From Candidatus Euphemobacter frigidus (GTDB taxonomy: Bacteria > Auribacterota > Erginobacteria > Erginobacterales > Erginobacteraceae), in the NCBI GenBank assembly GCA_030765805.1, contig JAVCDH010000017.1, forward strand, positions 2,467 to 66,466: a stretch of 64,000 nt of DNA, in the 5' to 3' direction. The notes under the pieces were generated by a model. The model did not search any database. It was not told the DNA's origin and saw nothing but the letters and a program-made list of their open reading frames with translations. Of this stretch, positions 2,200 to 61,393 are shown one piece after another; within the stretch, counting starts at the first letter, position 1; every line of letters starts with the position of its first letter. The translations under genes and the position numbers were made by a program.

Positions 2200-3119
2200 G
2201 TTCGACCAAGAGAAAAAACATCGGCCACTCTGTCTATCAACGGCTCTTGAACCACGCAAAGACCCACGGCGATGACTTCAATCTCCTGCTCTTCCGATAC
2301 GGCGTTGAACGCCTTCTCTACCGCCTCAGCATTTCTCCCTTCGCCGATATATTCATTCTGAAGGGTGCAAGTCTGTTCCTCGTATGGAAAGGACAGAACT
2401 ACAGAGTGACCAGGGACGCTGACTTGCTTGGTCTGGGTCCTGTGGACGCAGAAAATATAGCCGATATTTTTAAGGAAATATGCCAGGCCGTCTCTGATGA
2501 TGTTGACGGCATTCAATTCATGCCCGACACCATCAGAGTAGCGCCTATCCGTGAAGAGCATGAGTATGGAGGTATCCGGGTAACGCTCGTGGGTATGCTC
2601 CATCATGCCCGTATACCCCTTCAGATTGACATCGGTTGGGGCGATGCCGTCACACCGGCACCGGAAAAGATCGACTTCCCGACGATTCTGGACGCTCCCA
2701 AACCACATCTTCTGGCGTACCCCCGGTATACGATGGTTGCCGAGAAGCTTGAGACCATGGTGCGACTGGGAATAGCCAACAGTCGGATGAAGGATTTTTT
2801 CGACGTCTGGCTGTTGAGCCGGCTGTTTGAGTTTGACGGCCGAACGCTTTGTGAAGCCGTGCGTAACACCTTCCAGCAACGCTCAACCCTCCTGGCGGCC
2901 GGGTTACCGATGGCTTTTACGGAAGAATTCCGGAAAGATACGCAGAAGCAGACCCAATGGCGGGCATTTATACGTAAGTCAAAACCCAAAACCGAGCCTG
3001 GGGACCTTGATACCGTTATCAGCGAAATATCGGAGTTCTTGCTGCCGGCAATAAAATCGTTGCAGAGAGATGAGATGCTTGAATCGGCCTGGGCGAAGGG
3101 TGGACCCTGTTGGAAGTGA
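2196..3119 (+). CDS. AbiEii/AbiGii nucleotidyltransferase toxin
   Basis: ATGA overlap with the antitoxin. Motifs FILKGASLF, TRDADLL, QIDIGWGD, AEKLETM and SRMKDFFD. Confidence 0.9.
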   Translation: MSSTKRKNIGHSVYQRLLNHAKTHGDDFNLLLFRYGVERLLYRLSISPFADIFILKGASLFLVWKGQNYRVTRDADLLGLGPVDAENIADIFKEICQAVSDDVDGIQFMPDTIRVAPIREEHEYGGIRVTLVGMLHHARIPLQIDIGWGDAVTPAPEKIDFPTILDAPKPHLLAYPRYTMVAEKLETMVRLGIANSRMKDFFDVWLLSRLFEFDGRTLCEAVRNTFQQRSTLLAAGLPMAFTEEFRKDTQKQTQWRAFIRKSKPKTEPGDLDTVISEISEFLLPAIKSLQRDEMLESAWAKGGPCWK

Positions 3120-3164
3120 ACTAAAGTTTGGAACTGGGGAATGGGGAATAGAGAATGGGGAATA
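3114..3164. repeat. AAGTGAACTAAAGTT unit followed by five GGGAAT(G/A)-type heptamers
   Basis: The toxin TGA stop lies inside the first unit, which is identical to 1423-1437. Confidence 0.8.
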
Positions 3165-3231
3165 AATGACGAAATCCGCCCCGCAAATCACGCACCACAG
3201 GGTCACATCACAGATAAAGAAATATTCGCCG

Positions 3232-3268
3232 GGGGATAGATACTCTACATGGAGTCCGGGGCGGAGAC
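3232..3268. repeat. 37-bp direct repeat, a copy of the argS 3' end (att-like)
   Basis: Identical to 4266-4302; imperfect similarity extends about 15 nt further. Confidence 0.9.
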
Positions 3269-3311
3269 CCCACTCGGTCTCGAGATTCTTGATTTCTGAA
3301 TGTTGGATCAT
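3258..3311 (-). pseudogene. N-terminal stub of an AbiEii-type toxin (MIQHSEIKNLETEWGLRP)
   Basis: Starts 4 nt after the antitoxin stop and resembles the MI..EI.....WGLRP..VEKDY toxin N-terminus. The resemblance ends where the argS repeat begins. Confidence 0.65.
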
Positions 3312-4203: not shown

Positions 4204-4265
4204 GCGAAATATAGAAAAAAACAGGAAAAAATAGGAAGCGGGCGATAGAACAAGAATATTCACCC

Positions 4266-4302
4266 GGGGATAGATACTCTACATGGAGTCCGGGGCGGAG
4301 AC
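4266..4302. repeat. 37-bp direct repeat covering the last 7 argS codons, the stop and 13 downstream nt
   Basis: Identical to 3232-3268. Confidence 0.9.
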
Positions 4303-5982
4303 GCCGAGAATAGAGAGGCCTTCGGAGATCACCAGCTGGGTCGCCCGGGCCAGGGCCAGGCGGGCGGCCGTCAGGTCGGGATCATCGGTAATCACCCGGC
4401 AGTGATTGTAGTAGCTGTGGAAGATCGCGGCTAACTCCTCCAGATAGGCGGGGATAAGATGGTTCTGGTGGGTCAGGGCGGCCGTTTTAACCACCCCGGG
4501 GAAGAGAACAAGTTTCTTTATAAGTTCCAGCTCCGCCGGTTCGGAAAGACAGGCGAGATCAATCTTCGTAAAATCCGGCAGGGGGCGGCCGGTCACGGCC
4601 CGGAATTTCTTAAAGATGCTGTTGATGCGGGCGTGGGCGTATTGGACATAATAAACCGGATTGTCGTTTGTCTTCTTCCGGGCCAGTTCAAGATCGAAAT
4701 CAAGATGGCTCTCCTTCCGGCGGCGGACGAAGAAATAGCGGGCGGCGTCCTTGCCTACTTTATCCAGCACCTGTCGGAGAGAGATAAATTCACCCATCCG
4801 GGTGGACATCGAGAGCTTCTTCTTCCCCTCATAGAGCGTGGAGAGCTGGACAATGATAATATCCAGACGAGCGGGATTCAATCCCAGGGCTTTCATGGCT
4901 CCCTTCAGCCGGGCGATATAACCGTGATGATCGGGCCCCCAGAAGTCAATCATCTCTGAATAGCCCCTCCCGTACTTCTCCCGGTGATAGGCGATATCCG
5001 AACTGATATAGGTCAGATCGCCGTTTTTCTTTCTCAGGACGCGATCTTTCTCATCTCCATACGCCGATGAGCGAAACCAGAGAGCCCCGTCCTTTTCATA
5101 AGTGCTCCCCCGGGCCGCCAGGTCCCGTAAGACAGCCGTCACTCTACCTTCCGCCACCAGTTCGCTCTCACTCACCCAGGTCTCCATCTCGACACCGAAA
5201 TCCCTTAATTCTTTTTTGATCATCTCCAGCAACGCGCCGGAGGCGAAGGTGCCGCAGTAATCGATTGCCTCTTCCGGGGGTAGCTCGGACAATTCTCTTC
5301 CAGCCGGTTTCAGTCCTCCTTCCAGGATCCGGCGGGCCAGGCCGATGATGTAATCGCCCTGATAATAATCGGCCGGAAGATCAACTTCTTCGCCCCTCAA
5401 TTCACGCCAGCGCAGATAGACCGACTCTCCCAGGATCTTCATCTGGCGCCCGCGATCGTTCAGATAGTACTCCCGGGAGACCCGGTAACCGGCTTTGGCC
5501 AGGAGATTCGCCAGAACGTCCCCCACCGCCGCCTGCCGGCCGTGAGCCACAGTGAGCGGGCCGGTGGGGTTGGCGCTGACAAACTCCAGCAAGACCTTCT
5601 CCCCTTCCCCGGCTCTACTCTCCCCCCAATGTCCGGGAACTCGCAGAAGATGCCGGAGGGCGTCATGGAAGGCGCCCGGGGTAACTGTGAAGTTGAGAAA
5701 ACCCTTGCGGGGGTCGGCTTCCACCCGGGAGATGATCGTCTTCCGGCTGATCCGTTTCTCTATCAGGGAGGCAATGATCTTGGCCGTCTCAACCGGGGAG
5801 CGCTTTACCCGGGAGGCCACCTTCATCGCGATATTTGAGGCCAGATCACCATGCCCTTTCTCCCGGGGAATCTTAAGCTCGACTGAAGGCAGAGAGACGG
5901 GGGGAAGCAAGTTTTGAGCGGCTGCTTCCCGGAAAGCATTTCCGATCAACTCCGAGATACGATCGTTGATCTCAGGCAGCAT
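4279..5982 (-). CDS. argS: Arginine--tRNA ligase
   Basis: Motifs LEFVSANPTGPLTVAHGR, MSTRMGEF and YYVQYAHARI. Confidence 0.97.
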   Translation of the reverse strand: MLPEINDRISELIGNAFREAAAQNLLPPVSLPSVELKIPREKGHGDLASNIAMKVASRVKRSPVETAKIIASLIEKRISRKTIISRVEADPRKGFLNFTVTPGAFHDALRHLLRVPGHWGESRAGEGEKVLLEFVSANPTGPLTVAHGRQAAVGDVLANLLAKAGYRVSREYYLNDRGRQMKILGESVYLRWRELRGEEVDLPADYYQGDYIIGLARRILEGGLKPAGRELSELPPEEAIDYCGTFASGALLEMIKKELRDFGVEMETWVSESELVAEGRVTAVLRDLAARGSTYEKDGALWFRSSAYGDEKDRVLRKKNGDLTYISSDIAYHREKYGRGYSEMIDFWGPDHHGYIARLKGAMKALGLNPARLDIIIVQLSTLYEGKKKLSMSTRMGEFISLRQVLDKVGKDAARYFFVRRRKESHLDFDLELARKKTNDNPVYYVQYAHARINSIFKKFRAVTGRPLPDFTKIDLACLSEPAELELIKKLVLFPGVVKTAALTHQNHLIPAYLEELAAIFHSYYNHCRVITDDPDLTAARLALARATQLVISEGLSILGVSAPDSM

Positions 5983-6971: not shown

Positions 6972-7027
6972 CTTCAGTTCACTTCAGTCACTTTAGTTCA
7001 CTTCGAACTTTAGTCACTTTACTTCAC
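6972..7027. repeat. ACTT(T/C)AG(T)TC tandem repeat
   Basis: About six degenerate 8-9-mer units; the proA TGA stop is in the last unit. Confidence 0.8.
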
Positions 7028-8280
7028 TCCCTGATCTGTCCCTCCCCCCGGACCACGTACTTATACGTGGTCAGCTCTTCCAGCCCCATCGGACCGCGGG
7101 CGTGAAGCTTATCGGTGCTGATGCCGATCTCCGCGCCCAGCCCGAACTGGCCCCCATCGGTAAATCGGGTGGAAGCGTTCACATAGACAGCGGCGGAGTC
7201 TACCCGGCGGGTAAAGAACTCCGCCTCTTCTTCATCTTCCGTGATGATGGCGTCGGAATGGTGCGAACCGTAGTTATTTATATGGTCGACGGCCTCGACC
7301 ACCCCTTCAACCACTTTCACGGAGAGGATAAGATCAAGGTACTCTTCATACCAATCGGACTCAACCGCCCGCTTTATCTCCGAAAGCACGGCCCGGGTCT
7401 GGTCGCAGCCCCTCAATTCAACACCCTTCCCGACCAAGCGCGCCCGGAGATCGGGCAGGAAACTATCGGCGATCTTCCTGTCCACCAGAAGCGTCTCCAC
7501 CGCATTACAGACTCCGGGACGCTGGGTCTTGGCATTGTCCACGATCTTAAGCGCCATCTCCGGATCAGCGCTGGCCGCCACGTAAATATGACAGATCCCC
7601 TTATAGTGCTTGATCACCGGGATGGTTGAGTTCTCAACCACCGCCCTAATCAGAGATTCTCCCCCCCGGGGGATAATCAGGTCCAGATATTGATCGAGTT
7701 TGAGCAGTTCGCCGACTACCGCCCGGTCAACTACGTTCACAATCTGGAGGGCGTCAACGGGAAGAGCGGTATCTTCCATCGCCCGCCGCAGGATTCCGGC
7801 CAGAGCGAGATTGGAATGGATCGCCTCCTTCCCCCCTCTCAGGATAACGGCGTTGCCGGCTTTCAGGCAGAGACCGGCCGCGTCAACGGTGACGTTGGGC
7901 CGGGACTCGTAGATAATCCCGATCACTCCGATCGGATCGCGCACCCGGGTAATAACCAGACCATTCGGCCGGACCCGTCTATCGATCACCCGGCCGACCG
8001 GGTCTTCCAGATTGGCCACTTCCCGCAGACCGGCGGCCATCCCCCGGAGACGGTCGGGGGTAACCCGCAACCGGTCCAGCAGCGCCGCGCTCAGACCCGC
8101 CTTCTCACCGGCCCGGAGGTCTTTCCGGTTGGCGGACTCAATCTCGGTCGAGCTCTTCTTAAGCTCCCCGGCCATGGCGACCAGCGCCCGGTTCTTCTCC
8201 GCCGTATTCAGCGAGGCGACCTTTCGGGAAGCTCTCCGCGCTTTCTGTGCTAGTTCAAGCGCATATTTTGTGTGGTCCAT
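7024..8280 (-). CDS. proA: Glutamate-5-semialdehyde dehydrogenase
   Basis: Motifs YESRPNVTVD, CNAVET and NASTRFTDGGQFGLGAEIGIST. Confidence 0.97.
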   Translation of the reverse strand: MDHTKYALELAQKARRASRKVASLNTAEKNRALVAMAGELKKSSTEIESANRKDLRAGEKAGLSAALLDRLRVTPDRLRGMAAGLREVANLEDPVGRVIDRRVRPNGLVITRVRDPIGVIGIIYESRPNVTVDAAGLCLKAGNAVILRGGKEAIHSNLALAGILRRAMEDTALPVDALQIVNVVDRAVVGELLKLDQYLDLIIPRGGESLIRAVVENSTIPVIKHYKGICHIYVAASADPEMALKIVDNAKTQRPGVCNAVETLLVDRKIADSFLPDLRARLVGKGVELRGCDQTRAVLSEIKRAVESDWYEEYLDLILSVKVVEGVVEAVDHINNYGSHHSDAIITEDEEEAEFFTRRVDSAAVYVNASTRFTDGGQFGLGAEIGISTDKLHARGPMGLEELTTYKYVVRGEGQIRE

Positions 8281-8349
8281 TTATTACTCCTCAACATCAC
8301 CGGGGCAGGCTACCCCGGCCTATTGTTTGTTGACCCCTTGAGGCTTTAC

Positions 8350-8390
8350 GTTCGACGTTCAGTGTTGAACGTTGGACGTTCGACGTTCAT
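8350..8390. repeat. GTT(C/G)(G/A)AC heptamer tandem repeat, six units
   Basis: gttcgac gttcagt gttgaac gttggac gttcgac gttcat; same family as 59192-59239. Confidence 0.8.
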
Positions 8391-8400
8391 TCTTTTGCTT

Positions 8401-9537
8401 TTATAATATCAGCAGATTATCCCGATGGACAACCTCGTCATAGTACTTATACCCCAGGATGGACTCGATCCGCCCCGTCTTCTGCCCCTTAATCTGCTCC
8501 AGTTCGCGGGAACTGTAATTGACCAGCCCCCGACAGAACTCCTTGCCTTCCTCTCCCGTTATGGACACCATGTCACCCGCCTGAAAGTCGCCGTCCACCC
8601 CGGTAACCCCAGAAGCGAGCAGACTTTTGTCTCTCTCCACCAGTGCCTGACGGGCGCCACCGTCAACTATGATCCGGCCCTTCTGGAGACGGGAGAAAGC
8701 AATCCAGCTTTTCCGGGCCCGCATCCGCGCGAAGGTGGTGGGGAAGAAGGTTCCCACTTCTTCTCCCGCCACGATATCGGTTAGAACATTGGGTCGCGCG
8801 CCGCCGGCGATCACCACCCTCCCCCCGGCTCTGGTTACAATTTCAGCCGCTTCAATCTTGCTCCGCATCCCGCCCCGCGAGTACTCCTTGTAACCATTCT
8901 CTATCATCGCCAGAATATCAGGAGTAACCCGCTCCACTTGGTGAATTACTTCGCGGGGACCGTCCGGATGGACAGCCGGCTCCAGAAGCCCCTCCACGTC
9001 GGTCAGAAGGATCAGAAGGTCGGCCTGGACCAGGTTCGCGACCAGGGCCGCCAGATAGTCATTGTCCCCGAATTTAATCTCATCGACCGCGACGGAATCA
9101 TTCTCATTTATAATCGGGATAACTCCCTTCTCCAGGAGTGCCAGAAGGGTATGACGGACATTCAGATGGCGGACACGATGATGCAGGCCGTCCCGGGTGA
9201 GAAGGATCTGACCAACGCGGAGACCGGCTTTGCCGAAATATTCATGGTAGATATGCATCAGGACAGTTTGGCCGACCGCCGCCGCCGCCTGCAGGGCCGG
9301 GAGGTCACGGGGTTTTCTCCTCAACCCCAGCTCCTGCCGGCCGGCCGCTATCGCTCCGGAAGTTACCAGGAGAATCTCTCTCCCCTGACTCTTCAAATCA
9401 GCGATCTGCGCTACGATCCGTCCGACCAGCCTTTTGTTGAGCGAACCTTTCTTCCCGGTCAAGAGACGGCTCCCGACCTTTACGACCAGTCGCTTTGTCT
9501 CGGGCAATATCTCTCTGTTTTTTGTGATTGGGTCCAT
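8401..9537 (-). CDS. proB: Glutamate 5-kinase with PUA domain
   Basis: Motifs VVKVGS, PIINENDSV, FGDNDYLA and GGMRSKI. Confidence 0.97.
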   Translation of the reverse strand: MDPITKNREILPETKRLVVKVGSRLLTGKKGSLNKRLVGRIVAQIADLKSQGREILLVTSGAIAAGRQELGLRRKPRDLPALQAAAAVGQTVLMHIYHEYFGKAGLRVGQILLTRDGLHHRVRHLNVRHTLLALLEKGVIPIINENDSVAVDEIKFGDNDYLAALVANLVQADLLILLTDVEGLLEPAVHPDGPREVIHQVERVTPDILAMIENGYKEYSRGGMRSKIEAAEIVTRAGGRVVIAGGARPNVLTDIVAGEEVGTFFPTTFARMRARKSWIAFSRLQKGRIIVDGGARQALVERDKSLLASGVTGVDGDFQAGDMVSITGEEGKEFCRGLVNYSSRELEQIKGQKTGRIESILGYKYYDEVVHRDNLLIL

Positions 9538-15521: not shown

Positions 15522-16619
15522 TTAATAATAGTATCGATGCGCGTAGACACTCTCGCAGAGACCCAGAATGATCAGGAACGTTATGGTCACCGAACCCCCG
15601 TAACTTATCAGCGGCAACGGTAATCCGGTAGCCGGAAGTAATCCGGCCGCCATCCCGATGTTGATCCCCACGTGGCCGGCCAGGACCAGGATCCCCCCCG
15701 CGACCAGCAACTTACCGGTCATCTCCCGGCACTTCCACCCGATTATAAAGAGGCGAAGAAAGATGAACGCGTAAATAGCCAGGACCAGCAGACACCCGGC
15801 AAAACCCCATTCTTCCGCCACCACCGAGAAGATGAAGTCGGTTTGGCGTTCCGGGAGAAAACTCAGCATATTCTGGGTCCCGGCCAGCCAGCCCTTTCCC
15901 CAGATCCCTCCGGATCCGATCGCGATCTTGGATTGGAGGATAGTATAGCCGGCCCCGGAGGGATCGAGATCGGGGTTGATAAAGACCAGAAGCCGGGTCT
16001 TCTGATAATCCTTGAGGAAAAACCAGAACGCGGGGGCAAGCAACGCCAGAATCAGGAGGATAATCAGGATATACTTCAGCCGTCCCCCGGCGACAAAGAT
16101 CACACCTAAAGTTACCGGCAAGAAGATCAAGGCGGTCCCCAGATCCGGCTGCTTGAGGATCAGGAGAGCCGGGATTGCGGCCATCAGGCAGGGGAGGAGG
16201 ATATATGACCAACGCCGGCGACGGTCGACCTTAACCGAGAGAAAGCGGGCCAGCATTAAGATCAGCGTTATCTTGGCGAACTCGGACGGCTGAACGGTAA
16301 AGCCCCCAATCTGGATCCATCGGCGGGCACCGAACCGCGTCTCCCCCAATATCACGATTGCCACCAGCAGAAAGGTCGTACACCCGGCTAAAAAATACGC
16401 ATGGGCGACCACCTTCCGGTAATCAACGGCGGAGAGGATTAAGAAGAGAAGAAGACCCGCTACCATCCAGATGACCTGCCGCTTGAAATAAAGAATACCT
16501 GAGGCGGCGCTCAACTGGTATGAGGCGCTGTAGACAGCCATTGTCCCGATCACACTCAGCAACAACACCCCAACCAGCAGAAACCAATCAAGATATTTAA
16601 GAACTCTCAGTATATTCAT
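15522..16619 (-). CDS. rodA: Rod shape-determining protein RodA
   Basis: Motifs QPSEFAK, KQPDLGT, TDFIFS and PLISYGGS. Confidence 0.95.
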   Translation of the reverse strand: MNILRVLKYLDWFLLVGVLLLSVIGTMAVYSASYQLSAASGILYFKRQVIWMVAGLLLFLILSAVDYRKVVAHAYFLAGCTTFLLVAIVILGETRFGARRWIQIGGFTVQPSEFAKITLILMLARFLSVKVDRRRRWSYILLPCLMAAIPALLILKQPDLGTALIFLPVTLGVIFVAGGRLKYILIILLILALLAPAFWFFLKDYQKTRLLVFINPDLDPSGAGYTILQSKIAIGSGGIWGKGWLAGTQNMLSFLPERQTDFIFSVVAEEWGFAGCLLVLAIYAFIFLRLFIIGWKCREMTGKLLVAGGILVLAGHVGINIGMAAGLLPATGLPLPLISYGGSVTITFLIILGLCESVYAHRYYY

Positions 16620-16623
16620 TATA

Positions 16624-16729
16624 AATTAGCGCCTTCGGCGCAAATTTGGGGAATAGGGATTAGGGAATAGGGATTGGTTCACCTAATTCCTATAAAATGT
16701 TGCTTATTCAATAGTTTTATTGAAATTCC
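16624..16729. repeat. Dispersed element of about 105 bp (UUCG hairpin, GGGAATAGGGATT array, AT-rich hairpin), copy A
   Basis: Near-identical to 25068-25174 and 61809-61920; contains the mrdA stop codon. Confidence 0.88.
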
Positions 16730-18483
16730 AGAACATTAAAATAACGCCGCATGAATTCTCCCGCCAGGGGGGCGGCATCCCGGGGGCCGGATTCCGCGTC
16801 TTCCAGGATGATGGCCAGCACGACCTCCGGATTATCCGCCGGCGCCAGAGCCAGAAACCAGGCGTGCTTCCCGTATTCAGGAGGGGTACCCACCTGCACC
16901 GTGCCGGACTTCCCGGCCACCGTGATGACGGGATGGGCGGCCGCTCTCCCGGTGCCGTGCTCTTCGTTTACCACCCGTACCATCCCGGAGAGAAGCTCAG
17001 ACCAGATCTCTTCCGGGACATCCAGCTTCTTCCGGATTACCGGCTCAAACTCTTTTATGATCTCGCCCTCCGGCGAGATCATCCTCTTCACAATACGCGG
17101 CTGATAGAGCGTGCCTCGATTGGCGATAATACACCCCATGCTCGCCATCTGGAGGGGAGTAACCAGAAGATAGCCCTGCCCGATTGAGAGATTGACCGTA
17201 TCCCCGGTATACCAGGACTCCCCGATAATCTTTTTTTTCCAGGCCCGATCCGGGATAAGGCCTCCGCTTTCTCCTCTAATCTCCAGCCCGGATCTCTCTC
17301 CCAGCCCGATCGCCCGGGCCATTTTGGAGATCCTTTCCACTCCCACCTCCAATCCCAGGTTGTAAAAGTATATATTGCAGGAGTGCTTGATGGCTTGCTG
17401 GAGATCCAGCTCCCCATGGCCGCCCGGCAGCCAACAACGGAAGGTACTCTCGCCCAGAAGAAAGACACCCCGACAGTCAAAGGTGGTTTTCGGGGTGGAA
17501 ACCCGGGAACTGAGGGCGGTCAGTGCCATCACCAGCTTAAAAGGAGAGCCGGGCGGATACTCTCCACTCAAGGCCCGGTTCATAAGAGGAGCTTCCGGAT
17601 CGGAAAATACTCTCTCCGCGTCTTCCTTCCAAACCGGCCGGATCAGGAGGTTGGGATCGAAGGAAGGATGACTGACCAGGGCCAGGAGATCTCCATTGCG
17701 GGGATCCATCGCTACCGCCGCCCCATTCCACTCTTCCAGCAGTTCTTCCAGTATCTCCTGAGCCCGAATATCCAGTGTCAGATAGATATCATCTCCGGGA
17801 CGGGGTTCTTTGTGGCTCAATACCTTATCCCGGTACCCGCGGGCGTCCACCTGTAGTTGTTCAGCGCCGGGCTCTCCCCGGAGATACCGGTCATAAGCTT
17901 CTTCCACTCCCATCTTTCCGATATCGTCCTGGGCGCGGTAGCCTGAATCCTTCAACTTTACCAGCTCCCGGGGACTGATCTGGCCGACATAACCGAGCAG
18001 ATGAACCGGCACCTCTCCATACGGATAACTCCGGATCGGGTTCACCTGGACATCGACTCCGGGCAGCTCCGGGCCTTTCTCTTCCAGGATGGTGGCGGCG
18101 ACAATCCCGATATCGGCCGCCAACCGCACCGGCTCAAAAGGGCGGTCCCGAAAAGTATCCAGCCGGCGGTTTAACCGCTCCGGGGAGAGGTTGAGAATGG
18201 AACTGAGGGTCGCGATCAGTCTCTCCCGGTCTTCAACTTCAGTCGGATTGATCACCACGTCAAAACTGGGGCGGTTGTCAGCCAGTACGACCCCGTTCCG
18301 GTCGAAGATAGTCCCGCGAGGGGCAGAGATTCGCACCAGACGAACCCGGTTCCGGACCGCCCGCTCCTGGTATTTCTCCCCCTTTACCACCTGCATATAC
18401 CAGAGAGTGGCAACGATCACCCCCCCCCAGATAACCAGGAAGATAGCCAGGATCCGCAACCGCGCGTCAATCGACTTCTTCAT
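16717..18483 (-). CDS. mrdA: Penicillin-binding protein 2
   Basis: Motifs GSPFK (SxxK), SCN and KSGT. Confidence 0.95.
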   Translation of the reverse strand: MKKSIDARLRILAIFLVIWGGVIVATLWYMQVVKGEKYQERAVRNRVRLVRISAPRGTIFDRNGVVLADNRPSFDVVINPTEVEDRERLIATLSSILNLSPERLNRRLDTFRDRPFEPVRLAADIGIVAATILEEKGPELPGVDVQVNPIRSYPYGEVPVHLLGYVGQISPRELVKLKDSGYRAQDDIGKMGVEEAYDRYLRGEPGAEQLQVDARGYRDKVLSHKEPRPGDDIYLTLDIRAQEILEELLEEWNGAAVAMDPRNGDLLALVSHPSFDPNLLIRPVWKEDAERVFSDPEAPLMNRALSGEYPPGSPFKLVMALTALSSRVSTPKTTFDCRGVFLLGESTFRCWLPGGHGELDLQQAIKHSCNIYFYNLGLEVGVERISKMARAIGLGERSGLEIRGESGGLIPDRAWKKKIIGESWYTGDTVNLSIGQGYLLVTPLQMASMGCIIANRGTLYQPRIVKRMISPEGEIIKEFEPVIRKKLDVPEEIWSELLSGMVRVVNEEHGTGRAAAHPVITVAGKSGTVQVGTPPEYGKHAWFLALAPADNPEVVLAIILEDAESGPRDAAPLAGEFMRRYFNVLEFQ

Positions 18484-18508
18484 TTTATAACTTAGCTTCG
18501 CAACTTAT

Positions 18509-18551
18509 TTGAACCGCAGAGACCCGCTTTCAGCGGGTCTCTGCGGTTCAA
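18509..18551. repeat. Perfect 20-bp-stem hairpin between mreD and mrdA
   Basis: TTGAACCGCAGAGACCCGCT-TTC-AGCGGGTCTCTGCGGTTCAA. Confidence 0.85.
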
Positions 18552-18593
18552 TTATCTTTCTTCCCATCTTTGTGGTTAGATTTTAGTTTACTG

Positions 18594-19136
18594 TTATCTT
18601 CCCCTGCCCAGAGCCCGGTCCATCATCCAGAGCCAGAGGGGAGAGACCAGCGTGGTCTGCCAGATGGAGGGCCAGATCGCTTCCCGCCAGGCATAGGACC
18701 AGGGCGGTGGACTGGAGAACACAACCAGCAGCAGATAATAGAGCAGACTGCTGATCAGAGTTGATCCGGCCACCATGAAGACCCGGGTGGTAAGATGGGC
18801 CCGGTAAAGTGGGGCACTGGCGAGCGCAACCAGCAATCCCGTGGCGGCCAACGTGAGAGAATGCAGCCCCAATCTTCCGGCGGAGAAGATATCGACCATC
18901 GCACCCCCCGCCATCCCCACGAACCATCCTGAGGCCGGACCCTTCCTCAGCGCCCAGTAAACCACGACTATTAAGACCAAGTCGGGACGGAAATCAAAGA
19001 GGAATCCCGCCTCTCCCCATGCCCCCGGGATGATAACCGATGCCAGAAGAAATGCCGATAATATGGTTCTTCGGCGCCATCTCCTTCCCCGGGTTGAGAT
19101 AAAATGATGGAAGGGACGCCGGACCGTGATGCTCAT
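18594..19136 (-). CDS. mreD: Rod shape-determining protein MreD
   Basis: PDLVLIVVVYW motif, hydrophobic profile and synteny. Confidence 0.85.
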   Translation of the reverse strand: MSITVRRPFHHFISTRGRRWRRRTILSAFLLASVIIPGAWGEAGFLFDFRPDLVLIVVVYWALRKGPASGWFVGMAGGAMVDIFSAGRLGLHSLTLAATGLLVALASAPLYRAHLTTRVFMVAGSTLISSLLYYLLLVVFSSPPPWSYAWREAIWPSIWQTTLVSPLWLWMMDRALGRGR

Positions 19137-41212: not shown

Positions 41213-41225
41213 GTTTTCACTTCAA

Positions 41226-43291: not shown

Positions 43292-43549
43292 CTAGGAGCC
43301 TGTCCGAGTAATAATCTCTGACGCGCCGCCTGTCACTTGCGAGCGAATCAAGGCGCGAGGCCGGAGCAACGCAGAGTCGCGACGCAAGTGACGGCTGCCT
43401 AAAGGGTTTCGGCGGGGGGCAGCTGCCTGTGGCGTTGTCCGGCCCTTGGCGGGAACGATGCGTTCAGCATCGCCTGCGTTGCCGTACCTTGCATTCGGCC
43501 GCCCGGCGCTCGAAACGCGTCGAGAGCCATTACTCGGACAGGCTCCTAG
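43292..43549. mobile_element. MITE of about 250 bp with a perfect 21-bp inverted terminus including CTAG (IS5-like target)
   Basis: CTAGGAGCCTGTCCGAGTAAT ... ATTACTCGGACAGGCTCCTAG. Confidence 0.85.
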
Positions 43550-43550
43550 G

Positions 43551-45461
43551 TTATCTCGTCACCGGGATATCACCGGAATTCCCGTAATACGCGCGGGTTA
43601 AACCCCGGATCGCCCACAGGCCGGAGGTATCCCGGAAGATCCCGATGTCATCCGAAGAGTTACCATCGAAGTCGGCGGGTACCGGCTCGTCGGAGCTCGT
43701 TCCGTAGTAGCACCGGGTCAGACCTCTCACCGCCCACAGGCCGGACGATGATCGGAATATCCCGGCCTCCCAGGTCCCGTCACCTGAGTAGTCACCAGGG
43801 ATCGCCCTATCGCTACTCCCCCCGAAGTAGAGCCGACTTACGCCTTTCAGCGCCCAAAGCCCCGAACTCTCACAGTATAGCCCGATCTCCTTCGTGCCGT
43901 CCCCATCGTAGTCCCCGGGCACCGGGATGCCCCCTCCCTGACCGAAGTAGACTCGGGTCACGCCCTTTACCGCCCAGAGGCCGGACGAACCCCGGAAGAT
44001 CCCGATCTCACAGGCGCTCGAGGGGTTGAATTGCAGGGGTACTGCGATGTCGGAGGAAGACCCAAAGTAAGCCCGGGTCACTCCCCTTATCGCCCAAAGA
44101 CCAGATGATCCCCGGTAAACCCCGATCACGGCTGTGCCGTTGCCGTTATAGTCCCCGGAAATAGGCATATCCAAACTCGTGCCGTAGTAGCACCGGGTTA
44201 TCCCCCGAATCGCCCACAAGCCTGAAGTCCTCCTGAAGAGAGCTATGTCTGAGGTGCCATCCCCATCATAGTCTCCTGAATCAAGGATTATAATCGGAGG
44301 GATGGGAGTGGGCGTGGGAGTGGGAATAGGAGTCGGTCCCCCGGTATGATAAAGTACGACCAGCCCGTGATTATAATCACCGATCACCAAGTCCGGCCAG
44401 CCGTCGTTATTAATGTCCTTCACGTCAAGACCCTGAGCATTATAATGGCTGGCGTAGGGAATATTATAAAGTTCTTCCGGGAAGAGGGTTCCGCCCGGAA
44501 GCTGGAGAAAAATCCCCACCTTACACCAGCCACCGTGGACTACTACTACATCTTTCCGTCCGTCTAGATTTACATCGGCCACGGCAACAGTTTCAGGAAT
44601 GTCGTAGGCATTATATGTAGCGGTATGGGCAAGAGTACCACTGGCGGTCTGGGAAAAAATAGCAAGCCTGGCATTAGGACTATTACCCCCATAAGTCATA
44701 ACCACATCGTCGAGCCCATCTCCGGTTACGTCCCCGACAGCGATATTGTTAGCATTGCCAACGTCTATATCATAGTCCACTTTTGGGGCTAAGGTCCCAT
44801 CAGGCTTTTGAAGGAAAACCGAGAAGTTGGGATTGGCATATCCCTGCCCGTTCATTTTAACCGCATCGATCCTGCCGTCATGATTGAGATCTCCAACAGC
44901 GACGTCATCATATCCGGCCTGATTGCAGGGATACGTGGTCATGTCGCTAAAAGTTCCGCTCTCATTCTGAATAAAGACACCGATATAACTTTCCCGCCAG
45001 TGGGGAATAACAACATCGGCGCGCCCATCTCCATTGAGATCACCCACAGCAATCGCATCAGGGCCATCACCGGTAATGTAAACCACCTCGTCTGCCATGG
45101 TGCCGTCCATCTGTTGCAAAAAGACACCGATATAGTTCCCCGTTTCCACCACTATATCGTCCCTTCCGTCGTAATTTAAATCTCCCACAGCCAGATTATC
45201 CGGCGAGGGAGGAGCGTAATAGATAGTAGGAGAACCAAGAGAACCGTCGGTTTGCTGGTAGAAAATGTAGAGGTAGTCTTCTGTGGTCAGGGCCACATCA
45301 TTTCGGAAGTCGTGGTTAAAGTCACCGATCCCGACACCATCACCGTCCGGGGCGTCATATACTACATAGGGCTCAAAAAGCTCCTCCTGGCTGTATATTA
45401 AAGAAGGAAAAGTTGCGCCCAAGGTCAGTACAAATGATGCCATAAGATATATTTTTTTCAC
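43551..45461 (-). CDS. Secreted FG-GAP/VCBS repeat protein with a P/T linker and six C-terminal SGLW repeats
   Basis: Signal peptide, repeated GDLNxDGRxD motifs, PTPIPTPTPTP linker and terminal GDIPVTR. Confidence 0.88.
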   Translation of the reverse strand: MKKIYLMASFVLTLGATFPSLIYSQEELFEPYVVYDAPDGDGVGIGDFNHDFRNDVALTTEDYLYIFYQQTDGSLGSPTIYYAPPSPDNLAVGDLNYDGRDDIVVETGNYIGVFLQQMDGTMADEVVYITGDGPDAIAVGDLNGDGRADVVIPHWRESYIGVFIQNESGTFSDMTTYPCNQAGYDDVAVGDLNHDGRIDAVKMNGQGYANPNFSVFLQKPDGTLAPKVDYDIDVGNANNIAVGDVTGDGLDDVVMTYGGNSPNARLAIFSQTASGTLAHTATYNAYDIPETVAVADVNLDGRKDVVVVHGGWCKVGIFLQLPGGTLFPEELYNIPYASHYNAQGLDVKDINNDGWPDLVIGDYNHGLVVLYHTGGPTPIPTPTPTPIPPIIILDSGDYDGDGTSDIALFRRTSGLWAIRGITRCYYGTSLDMPISGDYNGNGTAVIGVYRGSSGLWAIRGVTRAYFGSSSDIAVPLQFNPSSACEIGIFRGSSGLWAVKGVTRVYFGQGGGIPVPGDYDGDGTKEIGLYCESSGLWALKGVSRLYFGGSSDRAIPGDYSGDGTWEAGIFRSSSGLWAVRGLTRCYYGTSSDEPVPADFDGNSSDDIGIFRDTSGLWAIRGLTRAYYGNSGDIPVTR

Positions 45462-52317: not shown

Positions 52318-52330
52318 TTTTAAGTGCCTT

Positions 52331-52468
52331 AAGTGACTAAAGTGAACTTCCGCCTTCGCTAGCCTCCTTCGCCATAGTAGCCTATGGCTACGGCGGCTGA
52401 AAAGCTACGGCGGATAAAAAAGTTTACCCGCCGTAGCTATGTAATAGCGAAGGAGGGTGACTAAAGTT
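52331..52468. repeat. 138-bp composite of tandem repeats and nested REP-like palindromes, copy 1
   Basis: Differs from 54496-54633 at two positions. Confidence 0.92.
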
Positions 52469-52499
52469 AAATCAGCTCCCTTTTTATGAATGTTAAATT

Positions 52500-53703: not shown

Positions 53704-54489
53704 TTAAAAAAACTTCTGTTTTTCCAGAGCGGCGACCAGGCGATCTACCATCTCCGCGGGTTCTCCTTGAAATATCTCTCCCCCCTCGCGAGCGGGCGGA
53801 GAAAAGATCTTTACCACCTGGGTGGGAGAACCATCCAGACCGATAAATTGTTCATCAACACTGATATCGGCGGCAGTCCAGGTAATAATCTCCGCTTTCT
53901 TCGCTTTCAGCTTCCCTTTCAAAGAAGGGAGACGCGGTTCGTTGATCTCTTTGACCACGGTCAGGAGAATGGGCAGATCCCCTTCTATAATCTCGTAGCC
54001 TTCCTCGGTCATCCTCTGAACGCGGATCGTCTCTTCTCCGATCTCCTCGATCTTCTTGACATAGGTAATCTGGGGAATATCCAGCTGGACGGCGATGCCA
54101 GGACCGACCTGGGCGGTATCACCGTCGATCGCCTGCTTCCCGCAGATAATAATATTATAATCCCCTTTCTTCTCTATCCCCCGGGCAAGGGTATAGGCAG
54201 TCGCCAGGGTATCGGCCCCGGCGAAGGCCCGGTCACAGAGATGAATCGCCTCATCCACCCCCAGCGAAATCGTCTCACGCAGAGCGTCCTCCACCTGGGG
54301 CGGCCCCATGCTGATCACGCTGACCGTGCCTCCGTACTTCTCTTTGATCCGGACCCCCTCCTCGATGGCGTAGAGGTCGAAGGGGTTGATGATGCTCTCC
54401 ACCCCTTCCCGGACCAGGGTATTGGTCTCCGGGTTGATCCGGATCTCGGTAGTGTCAGGGACCTGTTTGATGCAGACGATTATGTTCAT
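53704..54489 (-). CDS. etfB: Electron transfer flavoprotein beta
   Basis: Motifs KQVPDT, NPFD and GKQAIDGDTAQVG. Confidence 0.95.
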   Translation of the reverse strand: MNIIVCIKQVPDTTEIRINPETNTLVREGVESIINPFDLYAIEEGVRIKEKYGGTVSVISMGPPQVEDALRETISLGVDEAIHLCDRAFAGADTLATAYTLARGIEKKGDYNIIICGKQAIDGDTAQVGPGIAVQLDIPQITYVKKIEEIGEETIRVQRMTEEGYEIIEGDLPILLTVVKEINEPRLPSLKGKLKAKKAEIITWTAADISVDEQFIGLDGSPTQVVKIFSPPAREGGEIFQGEPAEMVDRLVAALEKQKFF

Positions 54490-54495
54490 GAAAAA

Positions 54496-54633
54496 AAGTG
54501 ACTAAAGTGAGCTTCCGCCTTCGCTAGCCTCCTTCGCCAAAGTAGCCTATGGCTACGGCGGCTGAAAAGCTACGGCGGATAAAAAAGTTTACCCGCCGTA
54601 GCTATGTAATAGCGAAGGAGGGTGACTAAAGTT
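54496..54633. repeat. 138-bp composite repeat, copy 2
   Basis: Direct repeat of 52331-52468; abuts the acyl-CoA dehydrogenase stop. Confidence 0.92.
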
Positions 54634-55791
54634 TCATTTCTTGCTCGCGCTCTCCCGGATCAACTGGGTGCCGATCACGTCCCGCTGGATCTGATTGGTC
54701 CCTTCGTAGATCTGAGTAATCTTGGCGTCGCGCATCATCTTCTCAACCGGATACTCCTTCATATAGCCGTACCCGCCGAAGATCTGAACCGCGTCGGTGG
54801 TCACGCTCATGGCTACATCGGAAGCGAACAGTTTGCAGATCGCCGAATCCTTGGATATCCTCTTCGCCCCCGCGTCGACCGTCCGGGCAACGCTGTAGAC
54901 CAGGGCCCGGGCCGCTTCCACCCGGGTCGCCATGTCAGCCAGCATCCACTGGAGCCCCTGGAAGGTGATAATGGGCCGGCCGAACTGTTTCCTCTGACGG
55001 GCATACTCAACCGCCGCGTCCAGCGCCCCCTGGGCAATGCCAAGCGACTGGGACGCTACTCCCGGACGGGACTGATCCAGCGTCTTCATGGCAACGATGA
55101 AGCCCATCCCTTCCCGGGAGATCAGGTTTTCCGCGGGAACTTTGCAGTCCTCAAAGATAAGTTCCGCGGTGGAGGAAGCCCGGATGCCCATCTTGTGCTC
55201 ATCCTTTCCGACGGAGAAACCATCCATTCCTTTCTCAACTATGAAGGCGCTCGCACCCCGGCTTCCTCTGCTCTTATCCGTCATCGCGATAACGGTAACA
55301 ATATCCGCGACACTTCCGTTGGTGATGAAACACTTGGTTCCGTTGAGAATGTAATAATCACCTTCTTTTCTGGCGGTCGTCCTGGTCGCTCCGGCGTCGC
55401 TTCCGGCTTCCGGTTCGGTCAGGGCGAAGGCGGCCAGGGTCTTGCCCGTGGCCAGATCGGGAAGGTACTTCTTCTTCTGCTCGTCATTTCCAAAGAGAAG
55501 GACAGGGAAAGCCGCCAGGGCGGTAGCGGCCAGGGAGAGCGACATCCCCCCACAGACCCGGCTCAACTCCTCCACCGCGAGGCATAACTCCAGAACCCCC
55601 CCACCCAATCCACCGTACTCTTCCGGAAGGTAGATCCCGAACATATCCGACTGCCGCAGGACTTCGACTATCTCCCAGGGGAACTCCGCTTTCTCATCCA
55701 TCTCCGCCCGGAGCGGTTCTAATTTCTCCTCCGCGATCTGACGGGCAAGGTCCTGTATCATTACCTGTTCTTCGGTTAAAAAATAGTTCAT
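54634..55791 (-). CDS. Acyl-CoA dehydrogenase (butyryl-CoA dehydrogenase-like)
   Basis: Motifs FALTEPEAGSDA, QIFGGYGY and IYEGTNQIQR. Confidence 0.93.
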   Translation of the reverse strand: MNYFLTEEQVMIQDLARQIAEEKLEPLRAEMDEKAEFPWEIVEVLRQSDMFGIYLPEEYGGLGGGVLELCLAVEELSRVCGGMSLSLAATALAAFPVLLFGNDEQKKKYLPDLATGKTLAAFALTEPEAGSDAGATRTTARKEGDYYILNGTKCFITNGSVADIVTVIAMTDKSRGSRGASAFIVEKGMDGFSVGKDEHKMGIRASSTAELIFEDCKVPAENLISREGMGFIVAMKTLDQSRPGVASQSLGIAQGALDAAVEYARQRKQFGRPIITFQGLQWMLADMATRVEAARALVYSVARTVDAGAKRISKDSAICKLFASDVAMSVTTDAVQIFGGYGYMKEYPVEKMMRDAKITQIYEGTNQIQRDVIGTQLIRESASKK

Positions 55792-55892: not shown

Positions 55893-56153
55893 CTACTTAC
55901 TGAAACGTCGGAAGACCAGGGTGCCGTTATGCCCACCAAAGCCGAACGAGTTGCTAAGAGAGAGATCTAACTCTGTGGGGTCAAAGTTCTTCACCTCCCC
56001 GCCGATCTGCGACGCGAACTCGGAAGGATCAAAAGCCGTAATCCGGCCGATCCCGCTTCGGCAGGTAACCAACGAGTCCCAGAACTCAACCGGGTTATTG
56101 CCGATCGGTGATATCACTCCCATACCGGTGACAACAACTCTCCGTTCCAACAT
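55893..56153 (-). pseudogene. fabF: FabF with a large in-frame internal deletion (about 60 N-terminal aa fused to about 25 C-terminal aa)
   Basis: [15 protein letters not shown]...[11 protein letters not shown] joined to [15 protein letters not shown]; follows acpP. Confidence 0.88.
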
Positions 56154-56261: not shown

Positions 56262-56504
56262 TTATTCAGACTTGGCGGTCGCTTCAATATACTTGATAGC
56301 GGCGCCGACTGTGGTCAATTTCTCCGCTTCTTCATCAGGAACTTCGATATCGAAGGCCTCTTCCAAGGCCATAACCAATTCTACGGTATCCAGAGAGTCG
56401 GCCCCCAGATCGTCAATAAATGACGCCTCTTCGGTAACCTCTTCCGGATTGACGCCCAGCTGCTCCACAATGATATCCTTTACTTTCTGAGTTACGTCCG
56501 CCAT
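56262..56504 (-). CDS. acpP: Acyl carrier protein
   Basis: Motif [12 protein letters not shown]. Confidence 0.97.
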
Positions 56505-59078: not shown

Positions 59079-59090
59079 ATTAAAAAAAGT

Positions 59091-59318
59091 TTGAAGTGCC
59101 TAAAGTGTGCTGCCGACTTCGCCAAAGTAGCCTCAGGCTACGACGGCTGAAAAAGTGACTAAAGTTAAATTACCTCATTGTGACGCTCTGTGTCGAATGT
59201 TGAACGTTGGACGTTGAAAGTTGAGCGTTGAACGTTCATCCCTTCCAACTTTAGTCACTTTAGTTCACTTTAGTCACTTTAGTCACTTTAGTTCACTTTA
59301 GCTCACTTTAGACACTTC
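59091..59318. repeat. Composite intergenic element: AAGTG arm with REP unit, GTTGAAC array, inverted ACTTTAGTC array
   Basis: 59109-59158 is identical to 1379-1428; heptamers at 59192-59239; array at 59247-59318. Confidence 0.87.
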
Positions 59319-59320
59319 TT

Positions 59321-61393
59321 CTACCCGACATCGCCCAGTTCGAACCGATCTCCATAACGCTCCATAAGCCGGCGGCGGATGGTGGACAGCTCGGGGTCCT
59401 TGAGAGCCGGATCGCGTTCAAGCAACTTGAAGGCTTGCCGGCGCGCAAACTCCATCAGGCGGATATCGGCAATAATATTTCCCATCCGGAGCTCCGGCAG
59501 CCCGGTCTGCTGGGTTCCGAAGAACTCACCGGGCCCCCTGATCTCCAGATCCTCTCGCGCGATCAAGAAACCGTCATCGATGGACTTTATCACCTGGAGG
59601 CGGCGGCGCGCGTCCTCGGTCCGGGGATTGCCCTGGAGGATACAGTAAGCCTGTCGGCGGCTCCTTCCCACCCGTCCCCGGAGTTGATGGAGCTGGGCGA
59701 GACCGAAACGCTCGGCATTCTCAATCAGCATAACAGTCGCGTCGGGCATATCGATACCGATCTCCACCACCACCGTCGATACCAGGATCATGGTCTTCTT
59801 CCGCCGGAAATCATCCATGGCCCGCTGTTTCTCCCCGGCCGTCATCCGGCCGTGAACCAGGCCCAGACTCAAACCGGGAAAGATCCGGCGCTTCAAATGC
59901 TCGAACATCTCAGTAGCGGCCTTCACCTCCAGCACCTCCGATTCTTCCACCAGGGGATAGATGATGAACGCCTGCCCGCCCTGCGCGGCCTGCTCCCGGA
60001 TAAAGGCGTAAGCCCGGTTCAGTCGCTCCGGTCCGATCCAGTAAGTCTTTACCTTCTCCCGGCCCGGGGGCATCTCATCCAGAATTGAAACATCAAGGTC
60101 TCCATAGACGGTCAGGGTCAGGGTCCGGGGAATCGGAGTCGCCGTCATTACCAGAACGTGAGGTTGAAACCCCTTCTTCCTTAACTCCGAGCGTTGCCGG
60201 ACCCCGAATTTATGCTGCTCGTCGATCACGATCATCCCCAGTTGCTTGAAGGCTACCTTCTTCTGGATCAGGGCGTGGGTCCCGGCCACAATCTGAATCG
60301 TTCCCTCCTCTATCTCCCGCAGGATTCTCTTCCGCTCCGCGCCCTTTACCCCGCCGGTCAGCAGGACCGTCTTCAGCCCCAGAGGGGCCAGCTCCCGCTG
60401 GATATTTTCATAATGCTGGGCCGCCAGGATCTCGGTTGGAGCCATGATGGCTCCCTGGTAGCCGTTATCCACCGTGGTTAAAAGAGCGCAGACCGCGACC
60501 ACCGTCTTCCCGGAACCGACATCTCCCTGGAGAAGACGGTTCATGGCCCGAGCGGTGGTCATATCCTCCTTGATCTCCCGGATCACGCGCCGTTGCGCGC
60601 CGGTTAAATTAAAGGGGAGCTCCGCGATATAGCGGTCCCGGAGGGGAGTAACCGGTGAGTGGGGCAGGCTCTCCGCCTGGCTTGCCCGTCTCTCCCGTTT
60701 CAGCCCCAGCGCCAGTTGAAGGATGAAGAACTCATCAAGAATCAGCCGCTTGCGGGCTGCCTTCAGGGCTTCCCGGTCAGCCGGGTAATGGATGGTCCTG
60801 ATGGCTTCGTCTAGGGGAATGACCTGCCAGCGGGCACGGAGGTCGTCCGGAAGTAACTCGGGGACCGAGGGCAGATACTGATCCAGGGCCTGCTTGATGA
60901 TCGTCCGCAGGGCCTTCTGATTCAGACCTTCGGTCAGGGGATAGAGCGGAACAATCCGGCCGGCCTGACTCAGCTCCTCCCCCCCTTCTTTCAGCCGTTC
61001 GAACTCTGGATTGGCCATCTGAAGCGTTTGATACCGTTGAACCTTTCCGGTGAAAACATACTCCTCTCCCTGCTTGATAACATTATCCAGATACGCCTGG
61101 TTAAACCAGAGGCAGGGCAGCCTTCCGCTTCCATCGTCAACTATCAGCCGAAATACTTTCTTCCCCTTCTTGGTCTTGCTCAAGCCCGTGGCCAGGACCT
61201 CTCCCTTGATAACGGCAAATTCTCCTTCCTCAAGAGCCGCGATGGGAGTAAAGTGCCGCCGGTCCTGGTAATCCCGGGGGAAGTAATAGAGAAGATCTTC
61301 TACCGTCCGAACATCCAACCGGCCGAAGAGCGTGGCCCGGCGCGGGCCGACCCCTTTGACATACTGGACGTCATTATGTAAGACTGATCTCAT
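59321..61393 (-). CDS. recG: ATP-dependent DNA helicase RecG
   Basis: Motifs QGDVGSGKT, DEQHKFG, MTATPIPRT and QLRGRVGR. Confidence 0.97.
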   Translation of the reverse strand: MRSVLHNDVQYVKGVGPRRATLFGRLDVRTVEDLLYYFPRDYQDRRHFTPIAALEEGEFAVIKGEVLATGLSKTKKGKKVFRLIVDDGSGRLPCLWFNQAYLDNVIKQGEEYVFTGKVQRYQTLQMANPEFERLKEGGEELSQAGRIVPLYPLTEGLNQKALRTIIKQALDQYLPSVPELLPDDLRARWQVIPLDEAIRTIHYPADREALKAARKRLILDEFFILQLALGLKRERRASQAESLPHSPVTPLRDRYIAELPFNLTGAQRRVIREIKEDMTTARAMNRLLQGDVGSGKTVVAVCALLTTVDNGYQGAIMAPTEILAAQHYENIQRELAPLGLKTVLLTGGVKGAERKRILREIEEGTIQIVAGTHALIQKKVAFKQLGMIVIDEQHKFGVRQRSELRKKGFQPHVLVMTATPIPRTLTLTVYGDLDVSILDEMPPGREKVKTYWIGPERLNRAYAFIREQAAQGGQAFIIYPLVEESEVLEVKAATEMFEHLKRRIFPGLSLGLVHGRMTAGEKQRAMDDFRRKKTMILVSTVVVEIGIDMPDATVMLIENAERFGLAQLHQLRGRVGRSRRQAYCILQGNPRTEDARRRLQVIKSIDDGFLIAREDLEIRGPGEFFGTQQTGLPELRMGNIIADIRLMEFARRQAFKLLERDPALKDPELSTIRRRLMERYGDRFELGDVG

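Follow-up and report, generated by a model that had tools for sequence, protein, structure and literature searches.

Small repeated elements lie in or against the stop codons of genes more than twice as often as random placement in the same spacers predicts, and one of their families is demonstrably a mobile element that duplicates its target on insertion. These are our main findings for the genome of an uncultured, Auribacterota-like bacterium, from which we analysed a stretch of 64,000 nucleotides (the window, C6:2467-66466) together with the remainder of the 2.26-Mb assembly (116 contigs, 53% GC, estimated completeness 94.7%). The assembly is a metagenome-assembled genome (MAG) that is closest, among public genomes, to 'PVC group bacterium' MAGs and to Candidatus Erginobacter occultus (Ca. 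Auribacterota); the relatives used for comparison all belong to other genera. A previous reading of the window from its letters alone, here called the sequence-only reading, had proposed that repeats of several families supply or abut the stop codons of ten genes, that insertion is targeted to gene 3' ends or tolerated only there, and that ends rich in stop codons make it harmless. We consider it probable that the elements insert at AT-rich gene junctions and that selection then sorts the survivors, aided by the target-site duplication (TSD) and by stop-bearing element ends; we do not think that stop codons themselves are recognised.

Repeats and stop codons across the genome

Genes were called with a purpose-written 3-periodic Markov caller (1803 genes), which took the place of a codon-usage caller that missed many genes; its starts were refined by matches to ribosome-binding sites (RBSs), so that stops are exact while starts are approximate, and it is weaker on starts and on foreign genes. 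Repeats were defined blind to gene ends, as positions matched by at least three other intergenic regions in an all-against-all BLAST, which yielded 564 blocks with a total length of 45 kb. A 12-mer multiplicity map (threshold 5) had been dropped in favour of this BLAST depth because the composition of coding sequence swamped its signal.

Repeats are carried by 310 of the 1400 spacers between confident genes (about 22%). The sequence-only reading had called for a comparison with randomised placement, and the comparison bears out the concentration that it noticed: the stop lies inside a repeat or within 2 nt of one in 123 of 309 stop flanks, where about 53 are expected if blocks are placed uniformly in the residual spacer. 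Counts range from 119 to 123 of 306 to 309 flanks by set, and the maximum reached in 2000 simulations was 67 against 119 observed. The excess is 2.2- to 2.9-fold under all six combinations of gene-score and repeat-depth thresholds, and it comes mostly from stops at least 4 nt inside a repeat, a class of 79 stop flanks as compared with 16 start flanks. At start flanks there is no clear excess (47 within 2 nt, 39 expected). Since the excess over random placement is this large and paralogous gene ends account for only 9 of 134 junctions, the pattern is real, and short spacers do not account for it.

What the genome does not show is a strict limitation to gene 3' ends. Repeats are as common in divergent spacers (26%), where there is no stop, as in tandem (21%) and convergent ones (25%), and genome-wide 107 start codons are found no more than 12 nt from a repeat end. 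The median distance from a repeat in tandem spacers is 9 nt to the stop and 20 nt to the start.

Comparison with orthologues, also proposed by the sequence-only reading, indicates how little of each protein is affected, namely the last 0-7 residues. RibH, MrdA, ComM, RecG and the acyl-CoA dehydrogenase have intact cores, with Pfam domains that come within 4-12 residues of the C-terminus. RibH ends in KELA or KDLA in five genomes, this one and four relatives; in these four a GCATAGC/GCAGAGA heptamer hairpin has the ribH stop as its first unit. A 43-nt duplication of the ribH 3' end surrounds a different insert in one relative (G002, L002 1920-2072), and in another ribH reads on into an array and ends in SASGGNVKK. 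MrdA homologues share a core up to RRY[FLW] and then diverge into tails 1-15 residues long; several tails are translated GGGGAAT arrays (LGNGEWGMGNGE), for example GNGEWGMGNGE; the closest relative has an mrdA-rodA spacer of 26 nt without a module and a different MrdA tail of 13 residues. The replacement by repeats is therefore limited to the last few residues, and a given junction takes different elements in different genomes. As a separate observation, a 51-nt direct repeat in the window (3221-3271 and 4255-4305, 94% identity) brackets about 1 kb with an AbiEi gene; it resembles the ribH duplication of G002, and in both cases an integrating element seems to have regenerated a gene 3' end.

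Family A, array arms and their cassettes

Family A, the family that ends comM and ribH, is a true miniature inverted-repeat transposable element (MITE) and is mobile. Its 22 complete copies measure 117-279 bp and have the terminal inverted repeat (TIR) GTAACTACTCAGGTT and subterminal GGTTCAC heptamers; a search with this TIR returned 43 matches at no more than one mismatch, against 0 for the reversed control, and found it at both ends of the 22 copies. An 8-bp TSD is perfect in 13 of them and agrees at 7 of 8 positions in 2 more. AT-richness is the only feature that the duplicated targets have in common, with no motif. The copies are small and have no transposase gene, and the interior, as in the long ones, is the internally deleted relic of a four-helix-bundle-like gene.

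Joining the flanks of family A copies rebuilds the empty sites, and in 7 of 15 the target overlaps a native stop codon or comes to within 1 nt of it. For random non-coding sites of matched AT content the corresponding share is 5.3%, which gives P = 5e-6 for the observed number; the remaining eight targets are 10-55 nt away from the nearest gene end, or near starts. At ribH the empty site GAT TTA GCC CGG AAA TAA became GAT TTA GCG TAA, with the loss of two residues and a stop taken from the GTAAC of the element. Elsewhere a native TAA was split and TAG remade by the element's G (contig C17), AAT TAA became AAG TAA (C20), and two convergent stops 1 nt apart were both kept (C42). On C1 a 6-nt TGA...ATG spacer was duplicated, so that both neighbouring genes keep their signals; on C13 the tail was replaced, the downstream RBS duplicated, and a C-to-A change in the TIR yields an in-frame TAA. 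Rebuilt sites thus show a new stop from the element end for ribH and three other genes. A preferred use of the TAA frame of GTAAC was considered and set aside, as open-frame counts alone (5, 4 and 2 of 46 ends) do not bear it out.

A 14-nt end, GTAACTACTCAGGT, recurs in two relatives (L091-L095), a genome of the same family (G001) and one of a different family in the same phylum (G019). Four contigs of G019 break about 120 nt inside an element with this end, which points to a multi-copy and possibly longer relative.

The short tandem arrays next to stops are the outer arms of hairpin cassettes, and their orientation follows the stop. In four families of arrays, those no more than 12 nt from a stop run in the stop-bearing sense in 29 cases and antisense in 2 (P = 5e-7), while more distal arrays are sense in 18 and antisense in 37; in all 12 detectable inverted pairs the stops read inward. 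Two further families have stop-free heptamers and keep the stop in the outermost motif, GTAAC or AAAGAATGAAC (the latter in the GAACGTT family). Stops are accordingly supplied by the GTAAC of the MITE, by the TAA of a 266-bp TIR element (TAA-CTAGG), by AAAGAATGAAC and by stop-bearing array units. The idea that element ends provide stops holds for these specific ends, and the strong stop-richness of repeat ends in general has to be rejected: averaged over the 564 blocks, 30 nt suffice to close 1.46 frames when read inward, compared with 1.32 on the opposite strand and 1.24 after shuffling, a mild enrichment. A heptamer array of the same kind as the intergenic ones, (GTGACTG)x4, also occurs at 22717-22748 inside an open reading frame (ORF, 22351-23325).

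An intact gene of the four-helix-bundle family PF05635 (23S_rRNA_IVP) lies at C3:26436-26750 (126.6 bits). Its cassette (C3:26424-26780) consists of a TGGTGAC/TGGGGAC array that begins with the TGA of the upstream gene, the gene itself, and an inverse array that ends 10 nt before the next ATG. On contig C74 a PF05635 pseudogene (35.6 bits) lies between GAACGTT arrays in like manner. All the cassettes examined lie between protein-coding genes and none in a 23S rRNA helix. The best explanation is that at least some of the families derive from cassettes with a four-helix-bundle gene between inverted arms, similar to the intervening sequences (IVSs) of rRNA. A bolder version, which we rate as rather unlikely, would make hairpin cassettes of the S23p/IVS type a general mobile class specialised in gene junctions, with rRNA helices as one niche and with arms shaped to stop inward-moving ribosomes within a few codons, before an RNase III-type stem. 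If this were true, such cassettes, together with the junction-duplicating 8-bp TSD, could spread inside essential operons without polar damage, and they would also seed new C-terminal tails and start contexts without a Shine-Dalgarno sequence.

The start codon of many genes comes 0-5 nt beyond the distal end of a module (in the window at 16606-16622, 25055-25075 and 54486-54492), so modules may supply start contexts as well as stops. The usual context is a GC hairpin, then CTAA(T/G)TT(A/C)TA or CTAATTTATA, then ATG, without a Shine-Dalgarno sequence. Another motif, TCGGAATTTCAATAA, has 32 sites in the genome (e.g., 16722-16736 and 25160-25175 in the window), usually after a GC hairpin plus CTAAGTTCCTG; it precedes several different downstream modules and looks like a common junction or 'adapter' sequence.

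Insertion, selection and rival explanations

On the reading we favour, a compact genome would have been colonised by several families of small non-autonomous elements of hairpin or MITE type, with arms built from 7- or 9/10-nt tandem units. They would insert in AT-rich sequence, which in this 53% GC genome is concentrated at gene junctions, and copies would survive only where both neighbours remain functional. As shown for family A, the 8-bp TSD places a copy of the junction on each side of the insert and so preserves the upstream stop and the downstream RBS and start, even where the original spacer had 1-6 nt or the genes overlapped. Where the cut falls within the last few codons, the outer end of the element provides a new in-frame stop after 0-7 residues, and in the transcript the insert is probably insulated by its hairpin arms. 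The excess at stops would then be the combined outcome of a preference for AT-rich junctions and of purifying selection. That the repeats are insertions at all, as the sequence-only reading supposed, is shown for one family by its TSDs and rebuilt empty sites, and their concentration at gene junctions lies far above uniform placement.

Several observations weigh against this account. TSDs and empty sites were demonstrated for family A, and for the remaining arrays and modules mobility is assumed from the recurrence of their sequences at many loci; a transposase with ends matching family A was not found in this genome, and none was seen in G001 or G019. Starts from our own caller make comparisons of start and stop approximate, and the asymmetry in tandem spacers is not significant with longest-ORF starts (P = 0.15). 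The probability of carrying a repeat is also roughly independent of residual spacer length (0.23 at 5-15 nt, 0.31 at 400-1500 nt), which insertion per nucleotide followed by selection does not predict and which could indicate a recognised feature, one per junction. Finally, the ribH stop of the relatives is in phase with the first unit of the GCATAGC array, which in-situ array growth fits as well.

The flat dependence on spacer length is also an argument for active targeting, in which the transposition machinery recognises gene 3' ends or stop-proximal DNA and placement is set at insertion; the cue could be a sharp AT-rich dip beside GC-rich coding sequence, or a structure linked to termination. 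This is a live rival, if one to which we assign a low probability. The family A targets that touch a native stop and the shorter median distance to the stop in tandem spacers speak for it, whereas the lack of any TSD motif beyond AT-richness, the eight targets away from stops, the equally repeat-bearing divergent spacers and the many starts close to a repeat end do not fit, and an impression of one target per junction would also arise if long spacers are constrained at most of their positions. Selection could also act on the elements themselves, with hairpins kept after stops as terminators or attenuators, 3'-end stabilisers, RNase III sites or translation-uncouplers, and with stop-bearing arms preventing ribosomes from melting the stem. 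The fixed inward orientation of the arms (12:0 and 29:2), very stable predicted hairpins with the stop inside the stem base, the hairpin followed by CTAATTTATA and ATG at many starts, and a heptamer hairpin that starts at the ribH stop in two genera are all consistent with such a function, and rRNA IVS elements with the same layout of stem and S23p ORF are cut by RNase III (PMC4990558). Yet related genomes have different elements at the same junction, a sign of turnover rather than conservation. In E. coli, moreover, Liang, Rudd and Deutscher (2015) reportedly found weaker expression of the upstream gene when a repetitive extragenic palindrome (REP) hairpin lay within about 15 nt of the stop, so a position this close may be costly, and overall we regard a selected function as quite unlikely to explain the pattern.

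Two further explanations have little left to stand on. Arrays might have grown in situ, by slippage or unequal exchange, from a local stop-containing seed, the stop being the founder unit. In the four relatives the GCA/GCG TAG at the end of ribH is in register with the following GCATAGC/GCAGAGA array, and heptamer copy number varies in the Coxiella IVS (PMC4990558); in this genome, 18 stops recur in the next unit under strict periodicity, against 2-5 for control codons, in a test that is too strict for imperfect arrays. However, the same few units recur at dozens of loci that are otherwise unrelated, where they flank common cargo as inverted arms, family A has its heptamers inside an element with clear TSDs, and slippage leaves distal inverted arms unexplained, all of which makes in-situ origin very improbable as the general cause. 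Chance or annotation artefact is largely refuted and in our judgement hardly credible any longer. Short spacers could force adjacency and BLAST edges could creep into similar stops or paralogous ends; many spacers are indeed wholly filled by repeat and abut both stop and start, the few paralogous 3' ends noted above exist, and near-edge classes are similar for stops and starts (23 and 16 at 0-2 nt, 21 and 15 at -3 to -1 nt). Against this, the observed number exceeds that of every simulated placement at each threshold tried, and the orientation bias and the rebuilt empty sites are independent of block edges.

Repeat-encoded stops of upstream genes are already known as a phenomenon, given the precedents of BOX, RUP and Correia elements. 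In Streptococcus pneumoniae ATCC 700669, 36 genes end in a BOX element that codes their stop, and comparison with orthologues reveals no clear truncation (PMC3049150); each of the six frames of RUP contains a stop, as does every frame of the 155-bp Correia element (PMC2229807). Like BOX and RUP of S. pneumoniae and Correia/NEMIS of Neisseria, the elements described here are small, multi-copy, hairpin-forming intergenic repeats, presumably co-transcribed with their neighbours. They differ in having no sequence relationship to these, in arms made of tandem 7- or 9/10-nt units, in the coexistence of many families, in one family with 8-bp TSDs, in the share of repeat-facing 3' flanks affected (about 40%), and in their host, an uncultured PVC-group bacterium. 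Cyanobacterial short tandemly repeated repetitive (STRR) sequences were reportedly described by Mazel et al. in 1990 as intergenic tandem heptanucleotide arrays, with few unit families dispersed at many loci, a pattern that our arrays share; the phylum and the unit sequences differ, and the arrays here are inverted cassette arms with a fixed orientation to the upstream stop. To our knowledge no link between STRR and stop codons has been described, and a literature search on tandem heptanucleotides and stop codons turned up only work on frameshifting.

Another parallel is the 23S rRNA IVS, whose S23p ORF occupies the loop between terminal inverted repeats that pair into a long stem, has variable tandem heptamers adjoining and decays while the RNA stem persists (PMC4990558). 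The cassette on contig C3, with its PF05635 ORF between inverted heptamer arrays, has the same layout as the IVSs of Coxiella, Leptospira and Xanthomonas; unlike these, the elements here lie between protein-coding genes, most copies have no ORF, and one derivative family has TSDs, the mark of DNA transposition. The genome also contains four Y1_Tnp genes similar to IS200 and to REP-associated tyrosine transposases (RAYTs), at C19:8575-8832, C33:10683-11015, C53:14315-14647 and C96:5108-5437. The first has GGAGTGCG(GT/CA)AGCTTGC..CGC palindromes on both sides, which occur in about 19 copies in the genome, some of them after stops, and make up no more than a single minor repeat family; the arrangement suggests that a REP/RAYT system exists in addition to the heptamer cassettes. 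Palindromes at the 3' ends of genes in operons and the presence of a Y1 gene recall REPs, bacterial interspersed mosaic elements (BIMEs) and their RAYTs, whereas REPs are single imperfect palindromes of 20-40 nt without TSDs, a mechanism that heptamer-arm cassettes and a MITE with 8-bp TSDs do not fit.

Less familiar are the IVS-related heptamer-arm cassettes, the orientation rule and the manner in which an 8-bp TSD resolves spacers of 1-6 nt. The genome offers a quantified example of how a compact genome absorbs hundreds of small mobile elements without breaking its operons, with target duplication conserving stop, RBS and start signals and element ends serving as spare stop codons. For annotation, this means that many C-termini in this lineage, such as the GNGEWGMGNGE of PBP2 homologues, are element-encoded tails and not conserved protein sequence. 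The link between four-helix-bundle 'rRNA intervening sequence' genes and intergenic heptamer-arm cassettes also makes the origin and mobility of IVSs more approachable.

Repeat features of the window

All ten stop coordinates of the sequence-only reading are ORF ends, each in or against repeated DNA, and Pfam supports the names given to the genes (AbiEii, ProA-like aldehyde dehydrogenase, PBP2, ComM/Mg-chelatase-like, RibH, RibBA, RibE, an FG-GAP protein, acyl-CoA dehydrogenase and RecG). The stop is inside the repeat, as claimed, for abiEii, proA, mrdA, comM, ribH and ribBA. Of the four said to lie 0-2 nt away, ribE and the acyl-CoA dehydrogenase gene do abut a repeat, while the stops of the FG-GAP gene and recG turn out to be inside one. 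The estimate of at least five families also stands, with arrays, a nested palindrome, a composite module, a TIR element, a GGGGAAT array and a 266-bp TIR element at the ten sites.

AAGTGA(N)CTA 9/10-mer arrays stand at the ends of abiEii, proA, ribBA and recG. At abiEii one AAGTGAACTAAAGTT unit and a GGGGAAT/GAGAAT heptamer array occupy 3112-3165 on the plus strand; the stop, TGA at 3117-3119, is within the GTTGGAAGTGAACTAAAGTT unit, and the GGGGAAT array comes next. The proA array (6972-7033) is in sense on the minus strand, its first AGTGAAGTAAAGTGACTAAAG unit provides the TGA at 7024-7026, and the next gene starts (6954) 17 nt beyond it. At ribBA a REP-like palindromic unit and an AAGTGA(N)CTA array (41224-41337, minus) have the stop, TGA at 41334-41336, at the first array unit. 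The spacer between recG and the next gene contains stacked arrays (59079-59325, minus) in the order of a sense AAGTGA(N)CTA arm from the recG stop, GAACGTT heptamers and an antisense arm with a REP-like insert; the stop, TAG at 59321-59323, is inside the BLAST-defined block at the start of the sense arm. A GGGGAAT heptamer array in sense on the minus strand (36137-36163) abuts the ribE stop, TAG at 36163-36165, and a GAACGTT-type heptamer array with the terminal motif AAAGAATGAACG (8348-8395, minus) lies 5 nt past the stop of the gene at 8401-9537.

The mrdA-rodA spacer is occupied by a composite module (16613-16740, minus) made up of CTGGAATTTCAATAA, a palindrome, a GGGAATA/GGGATTA array and a GC hairpin. 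The mrdA stop, TAA at 16717-16719, sits 24 nt inside the module, which codes the MrdA tail NVLEFQ and the stop and ends 4 nt before the rodA ATG (16619). The window contains three copies of this module, all on the minus strand: the second, with a further module, fills the spacer from a stop at 25209 to a start near 25059 (25061-25211), and the third (61806-61926) lies 41 nt past a stop at 61968. Another repeat module (18480-18594, minus) occupies the spacer from the stop of a probable mreD (18594) to the start of mrdA (18483). Nested palindromic composites within AAGTGACTA units occur twice on the minus strand with 99% identity. One (52320-52470) lies 29 nt past a stop at 52500 and 2 nt before a start at 52317; the other (54489-54633) occupies its entire spacer, abutting the acyl-CoA dehydrogenase stop, TGA at 54634-54636, at 0 nt and the ATG of the next gene at 54489.

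Family A copies, their duplications and the 266-bp element are given without a strand. A degenerate family A copy with no recognisable TSD (25842-26025) provides the comM stop, TAA at 26022-26024, from the GTAAC terminus in its right end AACCTGATTATTTA. The ribH copy (40307-40439, 133 bp, GTAAC...GTTAC) is flanked by the TSD GCTAAATC, 8 bp on the left (40299-40306) and on the right (40440-40447), which corresponds to the ribH codons GAT TTA GC; its terminal TAA at 40436-40438 is the ribH stop. A third copy (40932-41212, 281 bp) has the TSD GTTTTCAC at 40924-40931 and 41213-41220 and contains an internally deleted relic of the four-helix-bundle-like gene (DIDAWQLARELTRKVY...GFINYLK), recognised by eye. 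The GC-rich 266-bp element (43288-43553) has 25-nt TIRs (TAAACTAGGAGCCTGTCCGAGTAAT), one of which has as its final 3 nt the TAA (43551-43553) that stops the FG-GAP gene; this codon is therefore inside the repeat. Predicted RNA folds reach -60.3 kcal/mol for the ribH MITE, with the UAA within the stem base, and -61.9 kcal/mol for the composite at 54489-54633 (z-scores -6.4 and -7.6).

The sole match in an Rfam scan of the window is a flavin mononucleotide (FMN) riboswitch (RF00050, 103.8 bits) upstream of ribBA at 42635-42808 on the minus strand. Beside acpP (56262-56504), an ORF of 86 amino acids on the minus strand (55893-56153) has a match to the beta-ketoacyl synthase domain that is confined to the domain's N-terminal 59 positions, a fabF fragment that could be the product of a deletion or of assembly collapse.

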